From the IMG/VR virus record IMGVR_UViG_3300012940_000037, positions 1 through 46,909 of that record: a stretch of 46,909 nucleotides of DNA; one strand, given 5' to 3'. Below the pieces are notes generated by a model. It worked only from the letters and a program-made list of their open reading frames with translations. It was not told the origin of the DNA and made no database searches. The first letter of the stretch is position 1, and every line of letters begins with the position of its first letter. A program made the translations under genes and the position numbers. This DNA comes from a virus (taxonomy: Duplodnaviria > Caudoviricetes). Positions 1,385 to 46,741 of this stretch are shown here, piece after piece.

Positions 1385-1704
1385 CTTTGCCCTCCTTCCT
1401 GTGGAAGGGGAGGACGCGACGCCCCCAACCCCCGAGACCCGCCGCGCCCTCCCCGGTGCGGCAGGCGATCCCTTGCGCCGGCCGCGTGCGGTCGCCGACA
1501 GCGCAGAGAGATTGACGAGCGACCGCGATAGAGAGGGCGCCGTACACGCCAATGACCGGCGCCCTCAGCCTGTGGGGGTGCAGGTGCGAGTCGGGAGCGA
1601 TTCCGGCTCGAACCTTGCGTGAGCAGTCACAATGTAGCACCAGGGGCAGGTTTCGGCCTAGCCGCAAATGTTGCGTTTTGGCTACGGGAACACGGGAATG
1701 TGTT

Positions 1705-1977
1705 TCAGTCCAAAACGTCCCCATTTGTCGGGATCACGACGCTTCCCTTGGCGGGCAACGTGACGATGAGCCGCCGCTCTCTGAGCAGGGCGAACGCCTG
1801 CCGGATCGTGTTGCGGCCTACGCGGAAGTAGTGCTGTAGCTCAACCTCGCTCAAGACTGTCTTCGCAGGCCAGCGGCCATCTTTGATCCTGGCTTCGCAC
1901 CATGCCGCTATCTGCTGGTAGCGGTAGACGGTCGGGTCCCAATCTTCGTCGTCCCATGGCGGCTCGTTCGTCAGCAT
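1705..1977 (-). CDS. GntR-family winged-helix transcriptional regulator (HTH domain only)
   Basis: YQQIA..I..G.WP...LSE.EL...F.V.R.T.RQA...L...LI...KGS matches the GntR pattern. Confidence 0.85.
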   Translation of the reverse strand: MLTNEPPWDDEDWDPTVYRYQQIAAWCEARIKDGRWPAKTVLSEVELQHYFRVGRNTIRQAFALLRERRLIVTLPAKGSVVIPTNGDVLD

Positions 1978-16638: not shown

Positions 16639-16710
16639 GTGTCCTTAGCTCAAGAGGTAGAGCGCCGGCGTGAAGTGTCGGGGGTCCGGGTTCGAGTCCT
16701 GGGGGACGCA
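16639..16710 (+). tRNA. tRNA-Phe(GAA), non-canonical anticodon loop
   Basis: Cloverleaf: GTGTCCT/GGGACGC, GCTC/GAGC, CCGGC-GTGAAGT-GTCGG, CCGGG-TTCGAGT-CCTGG; no encoded CCA. Confidence 0.75.
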
Positions 16711-16741
16711 CGGAGCGGGGACCTTGGTTCCCGCTACCCAG

Positions 16742-16815
16742 AGCGGGTTAGAGCAGTCTGGTAGCTTGCCGGCCTCATAAGCCGGAGGTCGCGGGTTCGA
16801 ATCCCGCACCCGCTA
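16742..16815 (+). tRNA. tRNA-Met(CAT), initiator-like
   Basis: AGCGGGT/ACCCGCT, GAGC/GCTT (A11-U24), CCGGC-CTCATAA-GCCGG, GCGGG-TTCGAAT-CCCGC. Confidence 0.9.
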
Positions 16816-17006: not shown

Positions 17007-17077
17007 TCCCTGTTCGTCCAACGGCAGGACGCGCGGCTTTGGACCGCGTAATGGGAGTTCGAATCTCTCGCAGGGAG
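17007..17077 (+). tRNA. tRNA-Gln(TTG)
   Basis: TCCCTGT/GCAGGGA, GTCC/GGAC, CGCGG-CTTTGGA-CCGCG, GGGAG-TTCGAAT-CTCTC. Confidence 0.9.
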
Positions 17078-25739: not shown

Positions 25740-26340
25740 GGCGCAGCTCGTCACGTCGATCGGGGAAAAGCTGGTCGCCCACTACGGGCGACCGAACAAG
25801 TTCATCACCTGGTGGTGTGAACCGCGCGGGCTCAAGGGCTCATGGCTGACGGCTCCGTGGTGCGCCATGTTCGCGAGCTACCTCTACAGCTCTGCCGGCC
25901 TGGCAAAGGAGGCAGGGCAGTTCGCTTACTGCCCCTCGTGGGTCAACTGGCTCAAGGCTCGCAAGCGGTGGGGCTCGACCCCGCGCGTGGGCGCGCTGGT
26001 CTTCTACTCGTGGAAGGCGAACGGCGTAGCCGACCATGTGGGCATCGTGACCGCGGTCGGCAGCAAGACGATTAAGAGCCTCGAAGGCAACACCACGAAG
26101 GGCGGCGCCAAGAATTGGGTAGCCGTGCAGACGCGCAAGCGCGACAAGACGATCCTTGGTTATGGCTATGTCGATAACCCGGTTAAGGAACGCCTCTATA
26201 CCGTCCGCAAGGGCGACAGCCTGGCCAAGATCGCGGCGCTGTATGACACCACGTGGCAGAAGCTCTATGCGGCGAACAAGGCTGCCGTGGGAAGCAAGCC
26301 TAGCCTTATCAAGCCTGGCCTAGTCCTGCGGATACCCTAG
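25726..26340 (+). CDS. Endolysin, CHAP domain plus C-terminal LysM
   Basis: WCAMF, PRVGALVFY, DHVGIV, EGNT; YTVRKGDSL..IA...W..LY.AN...I.PG.VL.IP. Confidence 0.9.
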   Translation: MAKSKAQLVTSIGEKLVAHYGRPNKFITWWCEPRGLKGSWLTAPWCAMFASYLYSSAGLAKEAGQFAYCPSWVNWLKARKRWGSTPRVGALVFYSWKANGVADHVGIVTAVGSKTIKSLEGNTTKGGAKNWVAVQTRKRDKTILGYGYVDNPVKERLYTVRKGDSLAKIAALYDTTWQKLYAANKAAVGSKPSLIKPGLVLRIP

Positions 26341-26634
26341 CCCGTTCCGGGCCAGCCACAGGTCAACCGCTTCGCGGCGCTGTTCGTCCTGGCGGATTTG
26401 CACGAGATGTTTATGGGCTTCCGCCACTAGCGCCGCATCCCAGCACTGCGGGTGCTGCGTGATGTGCTCGGCGACGGCCACGGTCGCGGCCGGCGACTTG
26501 TCCTCTGACAGCTCGTACGCGACCGCCCTTAGGTGGTCGCACGGATCGATCCGCTTGCCTCCGTCTGCACCGTTCGCGCAGGCGGTTGCACATAGCAGTG
26601 CAGATATCGCGAGTAGTGCTCTGGACCGCACCAT
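26320..26634 (-). CDS. Putative lipoprotein (possible superinfection exclusion)
   Basis: Signal peptide with lipobox ATAC; GGGAGA RBS; co-oriented downstream of the integrase. Confidence 0.6.
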   Translation of the reverse strand: MVRSRALLAISALLCATACANGADGGKRIDPCDHLRAVAYELSEDKSPAATVAVAEHITQHPQCWDAALVAEAHKHLVQIRQDEQRREAVDLWLARNGLGYPQD

Positions 26635-26755
26635 TCTCCCCTTGTCTCAGGTGTCCCCATGCGCTAGCGTAAATGCGGATAACGTACCGTAACGGTGCGT
26701 TGTCGTGCATCAGTCCAGGAAAATGGATTGATGGGAGGGGACAAGTAGAGACAGT

Positions 26756-26857
26756 GGAGCCCCCGCGCGGCCGTCGCAGGGGCTCCGTGAACCATACGTA
26801 CCCGCAGACGGGCGGCATCGTCACGCCCGCCGTTGGGCTCGCTCACGCAAGGTTCAC
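26756..26857 (-). ncRNA. Putative antisense regulatory RNA in the integrase 3' UTR
   Basis: Basal stem 26857-26845/26799-26787 with a GAGCGA bulge, inner 8-bp stem and adjacent 12-bp hairpin; G-U pairs favour the minus strand; complementary to ten start-associated motifs. Confidence 0.6.
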
Positions 26858-26860
26858 CAT

Positions 26861-28051
26861 CTATGCTAGCGCCCTCCGCCCGCGAGCGAAAGCCGCGAAG
26901 TCCACTACCTGTGCCGACACAGCGTCAGAATGGTCAGTGACCTCCGGTTCGCTCGTGGGCTCTTTTGCTGTCTCCGGGGCCGCTGCGAGCGCGGCCAGCT
27001 CGGGAATCTTCTCCATGGCGTTCGCGGTCAGCTCCGGTGTGGCGTTCGCCCACGATGCGTAACGATCATAATCCTCATGGTCGTTGACATAGATGCGCGT
27101 CGTCTTCACGTCCTCGTGATCGAGCGCGATCTGTGTCAGCTCCCACGCGTCCCCGCGGTTCTGGTCGCTGGCTGCCTGCTTGCGCTGGTTCGCAAAGGTC
27201 TTGCGAAGGATATGCCAGCCGTCGCCGGCGCCGCGCCAGAGGCCGGCGCGTTGCAGTAAGGGGCGGATCACCTTGTCCGGGTTGGTCATGATGAAGTTGG
27301 GCGCCAGGATCGTCGGGCGCGTGTGCCCCTTGCGGGCGTAGCCGGTCGCAGTGAGCGCAGGGAACACGATCCAATTCGCGTGTGGCTCGTCCACGCCGAG
27401 TTCTTTGGCGTAGGCGTCGCGCCAGGCTTCGAGCACCGCGCGCAGGCGCGGGGTCAACGGCATCTGTTTGCCGAGCTTGCGACCCTTGTTGTTGTTCCAC
27501 TCGATGAAGCCTTCCTCCCATCGGATGTCGGCCCACACGAGCGGTTCTTGACCGGTCTTGTCTCCCACCACTTCGCCGATGCGGCGTCCGGTGAGGCGCA
27601 TGAAGAGCAGTAGGTAATAGTTGCGCAGGTGGGTCTTCCGGGCGACGGGCAGGAGTGTCACAAACTCCTCGTCGGTCAAGCGCCGGTCGCGCTTGGCCTT
27701 GGCGGTGTGCCGCCGCGGCGGCAGCTCTTCGGCATAGTTCACGTCGGGGGCGAGATGCCCCCGCTTCATCAACCACTTGATGATGTGACGCAGGTTCGAC
27801 TTGCGTTGCTCGTAGGCGCTGGGGGCCTTGGCCGCCACGTAGTCGCGGAAGAACCCTTCCACGGTCGCCATGGTGATGTCGGTTGTCAGTGCCTCGCGGT
27901 CCAGGCCGCGGGCTTCCTCGATGTAGCGGGCGAGCGTGCGGTAGACGACGCCGTAGTTCTCGACCGTACCGAGAGCGAGGTTCCGTAGGCCGATGAGGTC
28001 TTTCTCGTGGATCTTGAATGCTTCACGGAGCGTGATCGGGGTGAGGTCCAT
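26861..28051 (-). CDS. int: Tyrosine recombinase/integrase
   Basis: TGRRIGE (Arg), HILRKTF (HxxR), LDHEDVKTTRIY (His, Tyr). Confidence 0.92.
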   Translation of the reverse strand: MDLTPITLREAFKIHEKDLIGLRNLALGTVENYGVVYRTLARYIEEARGLDREALTTDITMATVEGFFRDYVAAKAPSAYEQRKSNLRHIIKWLMKRGHLAPDVNYAEELPPRRHTAKAKRDRRLTDEEFVTLLPVARKTHLRNYYLLLFMRLTGRRIGEVVGDKTGQEPLVWADIRWEEGFIEWNNNKGRKLGKQMPLTPRLRAVLEAWRDAYAKELGVDEPHANWIVFPALTATGYARKGHTRPTILAPNFIMTNPDKVIRPLLQRAGLWRGAGDGWHILRKTFANQRKQAASDQNRGDAWELTQIALDHEDVKTTRIYVNDHEDYDRYASWANATPELTANAMEKIPELAALAAAPETAKEPTSEPEVTDHSDAVSAQVVDFAAFARGRRALA

Positions 28052-28060
28052 TGCGTGAGC
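28051..28060 (-). promoter_or_regulatory. Start-associated motif GCTCACGCAA overlapping the int ATG
   Basis: GGAAGCTCACGCAATG. Confidence 0.75.
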
Positions 28061-28400
28061 TTCCTGGGTGTTTGGTTACTCTCTGTATACCCAAGCCACG
28101 AACGGAATAATCTTGGACGATTGGGAGTCACATCTTATCCCGTAGCCTTGGCCTGTTGGGCACAAAACCTTAAGACTCTTTGACGGATCTCGTCAACAGG
28201 TTCGCCCTATCACGGCGAACCTAGTCTTGGCTAGAGGACGAAAGGGGATCTTCGGGCCGGCTTCGCCGGATCGGGGCGAGGGGAGAGTTAGTCACTCTGA
28301 GCAGCCATGATGTAACGTTATGTAGTCGTGATGTTTAGCCCGCTTTGAGGCGGGCACATGATCTTTAGATCTTCTCTCTTATAGGCGCCCTTCGAGGGCG

Positions 28401-28433
28401 CCCGAACATGGCCGGCCTTCTGAGGGCCGGCCC
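28401..28433 (+). repeat. 33-bp direct repeat, copy 2, within hairpin cluster R2 (about 28195-28600)
   Basis: Identical to 646-678. Confidence 0.9.
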
Positions 28434-37561: not shown

Positions 37562-38581
37562 GTGATCATCGGCTCACTCTGCACAGGCTATGGCGGGCTA
37601 GAGATGGGGCTCCGCGTGGTGTTCCCCTTCGCCCGCCTGGCCTGGGTGGCAGACAACGACCGGGCCGCGTCGATCCTGTTGGCGGCGCGCTATCCAGGCG
37701 TGCCGAACCTGGGAGACATCACCGCGGTTGACTGGTCAACCGTCGAGCGGGTTGACCTCCTGGCGGCCGGCATCCCATGCCAGCCGCACAGCTACGCAGG
37801 GAAGGGGAAAGGGAGTGACGACGAAAGAGACCTTGTCGAGCACTTCATTCGAGCCGTTCGCGAGCTACGGCCGCGGTTCGTCCTCCTGGAGAACGTACCC
37901 GGCTTCAAACGATGGGGACTCCCCAGAGTTCTCGGGGCGCTGGCCGAGATGGGGTTTCATGCGCGATGGCATAGCGTACGAGCTTCCGAGGCCGGCGCAT
38001 CTCACCGAAGAGAACGCGTCTTCGTCCTCGCGTGTTCTCCCGACGCCCGTAGCGAGAGACTTCAAGGGGCGCGGGATGAAGGGGCAGCTCGGGACGACGT
38101 TGTTGCCTACGCCCAGAACGACGGACGCGAACGGGGCTGGCCTGCACGGCTCCGGCGGCCTGGACCTGCGGACGGTGGTGAAGTACCTCCCGACGCCGGT
38201 GGCTTCGATGAGCAGCGGGCAGCCGGACAACGGACACCAGTCGGGCAAGTCGCTGATAGCGATGGGGTCTCATGGGGCGTTTACGGTCCAGCCGTCAGAC
38301 GGCAAGAGCGCATCTTCGGGCGCCTAGCGCCCGAGCCTACCGAGATCGGCCCTAAGGGGAACGTGCGCCTGGCGGCGCGCTTCCCTGAATGGATGATGGG
38401 CGTTCCTGATGGTCATGTGACCGATTTCGGTTTCTCCCGCAAAGACACGTTCAGATTGATCGGTAATGGTGTTGTGCCGCTGCAAGCGGCTTTGGCAGTG
38501 AGGGGTTTGATCGATGAAGAAAGTAAAAGTAACTGTGATGCTGGCAGGTGGCCTGCCGATGGCGTTCCTTGCCTCGTTTGA
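37562..38581 (+). CDS. DNA cytosine-5 methyltransferase
   Basis: Motif I SLCTGYGG, IV PCQ, VI ENV, VIII RERVF, X GNGVVP. Confidence 0.9.
   Translation: MIIGSLCTGYGGLEMGLRVVFPFARLAWVADNDRAASILLAARYPGVPNLGDITAVDWSTVERVDLLAAGIPCQPHSYAGKGKGSDDERDLVEHFIRAVRELRPRFVLLENVPGFKRWGLPRVLGALAEMGFHARWHSVRASEAGASHRRERVFVLACSPDARSERLQGARDEGAARDDVVAYAQNDGRERGWPARLRRPGPADGGEVPPDAGGFDEQRAAGQRTPVGQVADSDGVSWGVYGPAVRRQERIFGRLAPEPTEIGPKGNVRLAARFPEWMMGVPDGHVTDFGFSRKDTFRLIGNGVVPLQAALAVRGLIDEESKSNCDAGRWPADGVPCLV
37728..38327 (+). CDS. Overprinted +1-frame ORF inside the methyltransferase, with LPTP repeats
   Basis: WPRWG.MR.G..YELP followed by three LPTP repeats. Confidence 0.5.
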   Translation: MTGQPSSGLTSWRPASHASRTATQGRGKGVTTKETLSSTSFEPFASYGRGSSSWRTYPASNDGDSPEFSGRWPRWGFMRDGIAYELPRPAHLTEENASSSSRVLPTPVARDFKGRGMKGQLGTTLLPTPRTTDANGAGLHGSGGLDLRTVVKYLPTPVASMSSGQPDNGHQSGKSLIAMGSHGAFTVQPSDGKSASSGA

Positions 38582-41846: not shown

Positions 41847-41980
41847 GTCGCCTCCCGGGTCTCCCGCTCGACCAGCGTCCAGCGGCGCTCCCACTCCGTG
41901 CAGTGCGGGCACGTGCAGGTCTTGATGTGATTGCGAATGGCGGCCCATAGAGCCCGCCTCCCCATCTGTTTCGGGTCCAT
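41843..41980 (-). CDS. Small Cys-cluster protein (MDPKQMG...CTCPHC)
   Basis: AAGGA RBS and start-associated motif. Confidence 0.6.
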   Translation of the reverse strand: MDPKQMGRRALWAAIRNHIKTCTCPHCTEWERRWTLVERETREAT

Positions 41981-42021
41981 GCGTGAGCGGTCCTTTCCTC
42001 GCCCGCGGAGCGAACGCGGGC

Positions 42022-42642: not shown

Positions 42643-42699
42643 GAAATCAACCTTGCGTGAGCGATTCTGCGAAGCGATGCATAGACCAGAGCGAATGAT

Positions 42700-43202: not shown

Positions 43203-43314
43203 GATCGATTCCTTGCGTGAGCGAGTTGTTACATGGTGTTGCGAAGGACCACGGGCGATCGCACCTGTAGCACATCTCCCAGAAGAGTGGGCGCCGGCGC
43301 CTGGTCCTCCGCCG

Positions 43315-43521: not shown

Positions 43522-43658
43522 GATCGATCCTTGCGTGAGCTATGCAGGGAGCGAACCTGCAAAGGGTGATCGCTCTGAACGGCGCTCGCGTTACCACGCG
43601 AGCGCCAGACACAGCGGTCAGTCACGCCTCCTGGTCGTCGCGGCCGCTACCTGGTTGA

Positions 43659-44270: not shown

Positions 44271-44299
44271 TGGTCAAATCCTTTGCGTGAGCGATGTGA

Positions 44300-45123: not shown

Positions 45124-45218
45124 CGCGTGAGCCTTTCTGTGGCGGGAATCTGAGCATTGATTCCACTCCGGGGCCGGCGCCGCGTTTCCCGAAACGCGGC
45201 GCATGCCCTAGGGCAGGA

Positions 45219-45407: not shown

Positions 45408-45509
45408 CGTGATCCCTTTCCATTGCGTGAGCGATATCCGACCGATCTCCGCACCTCCCCTCTCGCGGGGAAGACGAGAGGGGAAGCACAGGCTACGATC
45501 GGCTAGCGC

Positions 45510-45821: not shown

Positions 45822-45928
45822 GATGGCATCCTTTGCGTGAGCGATTCGCGTGGAATGGACAAGTGAGGCTGAGCGCTAGCCGCACCATTGGGCGGCCGGC
45901 CTCTGGGCCGGCAACCCTCCTGGCGCTT

Positions 45929-46171
45929 CTAGATGCCCTCGATACCGAGAGTCTCCGCGATGCTGGAGAACAGGCTCTCTGCGCGGTCGCGCATGTCCTC
46001 GGGGATGTCGCCGAGAGAGACGAATCCGACCGACGTGGAGAGAATCCAGATCAGAGCTTCCGTGTCGCCCTGGTTCGCTGTCATGTAAAACTCGCGGTTC
46101 CCCTTGTTCGCGTCGATCATGGCGCGAACCATCTCGGGAGTACCCATCGTGAACGATGCAGTGTGAGCCAT
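45929..46171 (-). CDS. Hypothetical protein
   Basis: GAAAGG RBS plus start-associated motif. Confidence 0.65.
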   Translation of the reverse strand: MAHTASFTMGTPEMVRAMIDANKGNREFYMTANQGDTEALIWILSTSVGFVSLGDIPEDMRDRAESLFSSIAETLGIEGI

Positions 46172-46264
46172 TGCGTGAGCCTTTCTGGACTGGAGATCAG
46201 AGCGATTGATCTCACTAATGGGCCTGCATCCCTGCCCCCGCGGGATACTTGCCCAATGGCAAGG

Positions 46265-46712: not shown

Positions 46713-46741
46713 ATCATGGGGACACTTAGCGATCATGTCAA
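46713..46741 (-). promoter_or_regulatory. Leftward early promoter (SigA/HrdB type)
   Basis: TTGACA-N17-CATGAT on the minus strand. Confidence 0.65.

Follow-up and report, generated by a model that had tools for sequence, protein, structure and literature searches.

A likely antisense RNA gene at the stop codon of a phage integrase, with a seed complementary to the starts of the early genes

Does the folded element directly behind the integrase gene of this phage encode an antisense RNA, and if so, which genes would it silence and to what end? The stretch analysed (the window) is a complete virus record of 46,909 bp with direct terminal repeats, its terminase and capsid are closest, among named phages, to those of Streptomyces cluster BF podoviruses (~45% terminase and 48–54% capsid identity), and we infer an actinomycete host. 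Named phage genomes gave no DNA match to 24–30 kb and no integrase match, and a scan of bacterial genomes gave only integrases of 25–38% identity. Small leftward genes, which we call early from their position and by analogy, occupy 46.7–40.4 kb, downstream of a sigma-70-type site (46741-46713). The features around the integrase stop and at the head of these genes are as follows.

26861..28051 (minus strand): tyrosine integrase, 396 aa (PHROG 1 and PF00589)
26863..26868 (minus strand): predicted −10 box TAGCAT in the last integrase codons (CTA GCA TAG), ending 5 nt before the first RNA stem; putative in function
26756..26857 (minus strand): predicted small RNA, ~102 nt, with a basal stem carrying the 5' seed arm, a 6-nt bulge, a variable inner hairpin and a terminal hairpin
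26839..26854 (minus strand): seed arm, with the core GCGUGAGC at 26848-26841 and the free bulge GAGCGA at 26844-26839
26756..26786 (minus strand): terminal 12-bp hairpin, predicted terminator
46713..46741 (minus strand): sigma-70-type promoter-like site at the head of the leftward early genes, without a motif copy

The earlier note had drawn a minus-strand structure beginning 3 nt beyond the integrase stop (26863-26861), and all of its parts are present: the 13-position basal stem, the 6-nt bulge GAGCGA, the 4-bp and 8-bp stems and the 12-bp hairpin (26786-26756). Over 26750-26865 the minus strand folds at −65.3 kcal/mol (z −4.81, 0 of 200 shuffles as good), the plus strand at only −51.2 kcal/mol (z −1.92, 10 of 200 shuffles), which favours the minus strand as had been argued; for 26756..26857 itself the z-score is −5.2 on the integrase strand and −1.6 on the other. 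No U-tract follows the terminal hairpin in the window, whereas one is present in G001, G003, L020 and G015. Opening the whole seed 8-mer in the window RNA would cost 8 kcal/mol, and in the lowest-energy fold of G003 the seed is sequestered. Runs X2, X3 and X9 contain strain variants (two substitutions and a deletion), every one of them within the inner hairpin; one changes a G-U pair to G-C yet folds slightly less well (−63.1 vs. −65.3 kcal/mol), and therefore counts as neutral evidence. The one metatranscriptome run gave 3 contigs, none covering the RNA locus. Significant matches in an Rfam 15 search of the window, L048, L020 and L057 were to tRNAs only, and a pattern scan with the 17-nt seed arm of the window gave no match. 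The element as an attP or tRNA-like core was considered and rejected, with no tRNA match and no junction in 8 runs; the provirus G015, moreover, ends at the integrase start, on the other side of the gene.

The ten sites complementary to the seed arm that are listed in the earlier note all exist, with the places and lengths it gave, every one at the start of an early gene or of the integrase, and an eleventh match that it did not list (15 nt at 1610-1624, minus strand) is taken up below.

28051..28060 (minus strand): target motif at the integrase start, 10 nt, overlapping the A of the AUG
41980..41989 (minus strand): target motif, 10 nt, between the Shine-Dalgarno sequence (SD) and AUG
42649..42664 (minus strand): target motif, 16 nt, before an Lsr2-like gene
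43211..43225 (minus strand): target motif, 15 nt, before gene 43202
43529..43540 (minus strand): target motif, 12 nt, before an HTH_17/Xis-like gene
44283..44294 (minus strand): target motif, 12 nt
45125..45132 (minus strand): target motif, 8 nt, between SD and AUG
45423..45434 (minus strand): target motif, 12 nt
45833..45844 (minus strand): target motif, 12 nt
46171..46180 (minus strand): target motif, 10 nt, between SD and AUG

The core GCTCACGC is present in 9 copies on the minus strand of 41.9–46.3 kb, against 0.19 expected, and GCTCACGCA has 9 of its 11 copies at starts and every copy on the minus strand. Sites take one of two positions: in the SD–AUG gap, 0–5 nt ahead of the start codon, or just upstream of the SD, 11–14 nt ahead of that codon. 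The expectation that the listed sites would rank top by duplex energy was borne out for nine of them, which take ranks 1–9 among 71 start regions (five control starts lay a few bases off frame), while the tenth falls to rank 12. With opening costs included, net binding energies are −5.5 to −11.9 kcal/mol for the ten targets and 0 to −2.7 kcal/mol for six control starts; with only 3 sites, a G-U wobble test on one-mismatch cores was without power.

Many targets have a second potential contact close by, in hairpin loops reading UCGCUC or GCUC, which the earlier note had remarked on and which are real at 6 of 9 early sites in the window.

46200..46207 (minus strand): second-site hairpin loop AAUCGCUC
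45158-45151, 44345-44338, 43555-43549, 42696-42688 and 42015-42007: similar loops

Across four genomes, 23 of 46 motif sites have a hairpin upstream whose loop contains GCUC and whose stem varies, compared with 0.7 ± 0.9 in shuffles (n = 200), the genomes being few and related and the sites not all independent. Pairing between bulge and loop is the best accessible site at 46171. Such loop sites were not evident in G004, G015 and G016. Judged from sequence, GCUC loops held in stems of variable sequence favour a signature that acts at the RNA level.

The arrangement recurs in relatives. A start-site pattern scan found 11 stretches, and 7 unrelated records were dropped. The same motif occurs in G001 (integrase 82% identical), G002 (41%) and G005, with 17 of 19, 16 of 17 and 13 of 15 copies on one strand, respectively. 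One reverse copy stands behind the integrase, followed by a hairpin with a U-tract, in each of G001, L020 (integrase 51%) and G003, the last of which we take to be the missing part of G002 because the two share a sample number and complement each other in gene content; the early region is missing from L020, and the integrase region from the sequence of G005. The core GCGUGAGC is kept in G001, G003 and L020, and the stems around the seed differ in sequence while their pairing is kept in the window, G001 and L020. RNAs of five loci fold better on the integrase strand (z −3.6 to −7.2 vs. −1.6 to −4.9). A MAFFT alignment of the four GCGUGAGC RNAs aligned only the seed and the terminator. Even within this group the base after the core changes in concert, being A in the targets and copies of G000 (9/10) and G001 (13/16), and G in the targets of G002 (14/14) and in the G003 copy.

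In more distant relatives the seed itself is replaced, and its targets with it. All six integrase-bearing genome sets in which both parts are visible have one reverse copy of their own start motif downstream of the integrase, and these six hold four different seeds, each matching its own group only; seed and motif have thus changed together, in four different seed–target pairs, a co-variation that the earlier note had proposed to test in relatives. G004 (integrase 28%) is without GCTCACGC repeats and has a wholly different motif, CGAGAGAGGAGA, in 4 exact copies that are all at starts (0.01 expected per strand), with near-copies at several more; its sole exact reverse copy lies 32 nt past the box and is partly paired, with 6 free nt at its end. 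For G015 and G016 the expected features were set down before their sequences were examined. The complete provirus G015 showed all of them, that is the box, a seed (GCGCUGUGUGC), a U-tailed terminator and the complement at 3 starts; the opposite strand of its RNA gives a score just as good (z −7.2 against −5.3). G016 showed part of them, with GACACACAC at 8 starts on the integrase strand and one reverse copy after the integrase, in the apical loop of a long stem 270 nt past the stop, not right behind the box. Consecutive hairpins (z −6.4, integrase strand) run up to this seed-bearing stem in G016 (L097, 330 nt past the integrase stop) and may be one larger RNA or several. Complements of 10 nt in start regions number 14, 14, 9, 7, 4 and 10 within the own genome, against 0–3 between seed groups and 0–4 in three integrase-less relatives, counts that overlapping pieces can raise slightly. 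G006, WRightOn and Immanuel3, which have no integrase match or annotation, have SD-like repeats at most and no reverse copy among their top motifs.

We consider it likely that 26857-26756 (minus strand) is an independent small RNA gene, the product of which would repress translation of nine early genes and the integrase in trans. The central proposal of the earlier note, an antisense RNA on the integrase strand facing many ribosome-binding regions, stands as a prediction backed by conservation, co-change of seed and targets, strand asymmetry and loop sites. Transcription would start from the −10 box built into the last integrase codons, and the free bulge GAGCGA would nucleate on a GCUC hairpin loop or on a linear site. 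The target would then invade the weak 5' arm with its U-U and G-U pairs, and the resulting duplex would block 30S loading on nearly all genes in the leftward early operon, possibly with polar effects. Changes of seed would define specificity groups if the RNA serves prophage quiescence.

The likeness to the P4 CI and P1/P7 c4 RNAs, which the earlier note invoked, holds for the predicted way of working, whereas the defining features of both are lacking here. In the available excerpts of PMC12197685, c4 is described as a structured phage RNA whose single-stranded parts pair around the ribosome-binding site and block translation, and whose sequence differences underlie heteroimmunity; like c4, the window RNA has a single-stranded segment complementary to a ribosome-binding region, its seed being partly paired. 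The same excerpts give c4 one target, the ant mRNA (antirepressor), and an action via a protein repressor, whereas the window seed matches about ten genes. No Rfam 15 match to a c4-type covariance model was found at E ≤ 5 in the window, nor any in L048, L020 and L057, and no antirepressor family among the ORFs scanned; the targets are the integrase, the Lsr2-like and HTH_17 genes, and genes of no known function. P4 CI, according to excerpts of PMC4825925, silences lytic functions by pairing with two target sites, which echoes the loop-plus-linear pairs here, and is processed out of the very leader that it regulates, in which it causes premature termination at seqA/seqC, the sites on either side of it. 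In contrast, a separate promoter is predicted for the window RNA, whose sites overlap the starts of translation and lie 1.2 kb (integrase start) and 15–19 kb away, with none flanking the RNA.

By description, the nearest match is to the start-associated sequences (SAS) found in cluster K mycobacteriophages and in Microbacterium phages of cluster EF. The excerpted text of PMC3203893 and PMC11373665 presents them as an asymmetric motif that recurs, in a single orientation, where non-structural genes begin, all of which is true of the window motif. SAS (GGGATAGGAGCCC) occupies the Shine-Dalgarno position, while the window motif is unrelated in sequence and sits either ahead of the SD or in the gap from SD to AUG. 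In four K1 phages one SAS copy is reversed and stands away from any start (Pope et al. 2011, PMC3203893, in part), and SAS function is called unknown or unclear in passages of papers from 2011 to 2025 (PMC3203893; PMC11373665; PMC12699233; PMC7302621). The reverse copy is behind the integrase here, and in Adephagia and Anaya it occupies a 10-nt hairpin loop in the gap between the last genes of the early region; on the mRNA strand this copy, CCUCCUAUCC, forms the loop of a ~20-bp hairpin with compensatory changes between the two phages.

L071:33683-33695 (Adephagia 58682-58694): reverse SAS copy
L072:34871-34883 (Anaya 59870-59882): reverse SAS copy

Among 12 cluster K phages examined the anti-SAS loop is exact in 5, variant in 1 (Amohnition) and absent in 6, and the design of an RNA plus a start motif therefore holds in part, for some cluster K mycobacteriophages. 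LUZ100 was considered as an instance of the same system and rejected on the excerpts of PMC10134795. Our search of the literature, mostly open-access texts, found no description of a multi-target antisense RNA for start-associated motifs.

As to purpose, the earlier note had reasoned from the lack of a recognisable repressor. A search for XRE-type domains was negative in the window, G001, G002 and G015 (no HTH_3 match in G015), but the window does encode a GntR-family regulator, so that the absence of any repressor was put too strongly.

1705..1977 (minus strand): GntR-family regulator, PF00392 above the cut-off; possible protein partner or rival repressor

GntR is found in 5 of 7 genomes, in G015 and G016 by profile search despite no tblastn hit, and the RNA need not therefore be the only repressor; G004 has a small Cro-like protein and, without GntR, still has the seed–target pair. 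The purpose we favour is lysogeny maintenance or immunity to phages with the same seed, alongside GntR and not replacing it, and we give this an even chance. The complete provirus G015 retains both the RNA and its targets, and as its record ends at the integrase start and inside the exonuclease gene (ends which look trimmed to genes), attP likely lies upstream of the integrase and the RNA stays in the prophage.

It is possible, if rather less probable, that the RNA pairs as described but mainly times lytic growth, building up once a cell is infected and shutting off the early genes and the integrase, with little role in immunity, and the two roles can coexist. Cluster K phages have a protein repressor and yet carry SAS motifs, with the anti-SAS loop of 5 of 12 phages placed where late transcription of Adephagia reportedly starts; a host-type −10 box would, moreover, fire from the onset of infection, and GntR could provide the immunity. 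A function mainly in lytic timing sits less well with the position of the RNA: it always lies behind the integrase, provirus G015 retains it, and none of the 3 integrase-less relatives has an equivalent.

A broader reading of the lysogeny and immunity role is offered tentatively, at somewhat short of an even chance for its parts jointly: a temperate podovirus-like clade with an RNA repressor of re-tunable seed, in which one small RNA at the integrase stop matches nearly every early gene start. Seed switching would create immunity groups, by analogy with repressor–operator divergence in lambdoid phages, a GntR-linked transcript beginning with the sense motif would act as an induction decoy, and the SAS motifs of some cluster K mycobacteriophages would, again by analogy, be explained alike.

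Less easily accommodated is the view that a protein repressor binds the motif as an asymmetric site in double-stranded DNA, of the stoperator or operator type, with the integrase-side copy facing the rightward late transcript and the surrounding hairpins being terminators. Cluster A stoperators, as portrayed in excerpts of PMC6550527, have many asymmetric, transcription-oriented copies which diverge between related phages along with the repressor, as the copies do here, so that co-change of all copies is expected of a DNA site too. The same excerpts describe protein DNA sites numbering 20–30 per genome, in both arms and including promoter operators, whereas the window motif is confined to the ribosome-binding regions of one operon and the integrase, the early promoter (46741-46713) having no copy and the late arm no intergenic ones. 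The motif also keeps to the ribosome footprint, in either of two positions, and in G004 contains the Shine-Dalgarno sequence itself, the GCUC loops in variable stems are an RNA feature, and G004 has the pair but no GntR. GntR proteins habitually bind palindromes, which an asymmetric 8–12-mer would not fit. Near gntR, in 4 of 5 genomes examined, the motif lies 6–13 nt after a −10-like box, at a putative +1, which is a position expected of an operator. On balance we judge a DNA site unlikely.

1587..1636 (minus strand): motif copy away from gene starts, 15 nt at 1624-1610, right after a −10-like TACATT (1636-1631) and followed by a UCGCUC-loop hairpin

Sense copies at the putative transcription start next to gntR are at 1587-1636(-) in the window, 24014(+) in G005, 10900(-) in G002 and 15165(+) in G015, with no annotated-type gene start directly downstream in the window, G005 and G015; the copy could be a candidate leader target, decoy RNA or operator. 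The divergent intergenic region at gntR (1985-2070) holds repeated GGACGGTA boxes and a CTATAC...GTATAG inverted repeat, possible operators which are partly kept in G005.

Where the earlier note took the RNA to be the co-transcribed 3' UTR of the integrase, our analysis points instead to a promoter of its own. A TANNNT box overlaps the integrase stop or lies ≤10 nt from it at 7 of 7 loci, reading TAGGAT over the stop in G004 and, 3 nt past the stop, TAGCCT in G015 and TAATAT in G016, and in five loci the stem starts 5–7 nt after it. An Ala-Leu-(Ala/Gly/Pro) C-terminus is found in 15 of 19 integrase homologues, and in those with DNA the codons at these ends are CTA-NNA-T(stop), giving TAGCAT, TAGCAT, TACCAT and TAGGAT. 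Such codons are rare in the window genome (CTA is 5% of Leu codons, NNA codons 6–7%) and, unlike the box codons, codon (synonymous) identity at conserved residues is only 44–48% between distant integrases. No −35 element matched and the promoter scan was empty at this locus, hence the promoter remains a prediction; the conserved −10-like box at or near the stop makes the RNA likely a gene of its own, not merely the integrase 3' UTR. We find it improbable that the element is only the 3' end of the integrase mRNA, pairing in cis with the integrase start or released as a processed 3' UTR piece without a promoter. The element does start 3 nt after the stop, the G001 copy matches its own integrase start across 13 nt, and a −35 match is missing, as such a piece would have it, but the start motif of the integrase, present in G001 and G002, is degenerate in L020 and absent from G004 and G016, the rare-codon TANNNT box stands 5–7 nt ahead of the first stem in five loci, and nine other targets would be left to explain.

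The loop-plus-linear site pairs resemble CsrA-type targets, which would suit a motif that an RNA-binding protein recognises on early mRNAs, or that enhances their translation, with the reverse copy incidental. We regard this reading as very improbable. In its favour, the excerpted text of Pope et al. (PMC3203893) leaves room for either a protein or an RNA partner of SAS; against it, the reverse copy lies behind the integrase in 6 of 6 genome sets with four different motifs, and the chance of the 12-mer in the short interval behind the integrase is ~3e-5 in the window and ~2e-5 in G004.

The trans-acting RNA that we favour would differ in reach from c4 and CI, the known phage immunity RNAs, which act on one transcript each. 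If true, a single RNA silencing a purpose-built regulon of about ten genes would be a new phage developmental switch, and the four natural seed–target pairs would offer a ready set of orthogonal repressors of translation in actinomycetes. What SAS does in cluster K becomes directly testable, as the anti-SAS loop of Adephagia and Anaya is mutable in cultured phages.

Several further elements of the window were noted. A predicted small lipoprotein-like gene (26320-26634, minus strand), a possible superinfection-exclusion gene, lies directly 3' of the RNA, and similar small genes are at the same place in G001, L020, G003 and G016. Upstream of the integrase the block TAAACATCAC...ATAAC (28300-28345) is conserved in four phages (window, L002, L003 and L020) and is a candidate attP core or promoter element. 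A short GC-rich palindromic element near the left end (about 655-680) is repeated at the exonuclease start (28401-28433). Matches to a C5 DNA methyltransferase fall in two overlapping frames (37562-38581 and 37728-38327), suggesting a frameshift or a split gene. Three tRNA genes (16639-16815 and 17007-17077) stand ahead of the capsid module, where cluster BF phages have tRNA arrays.
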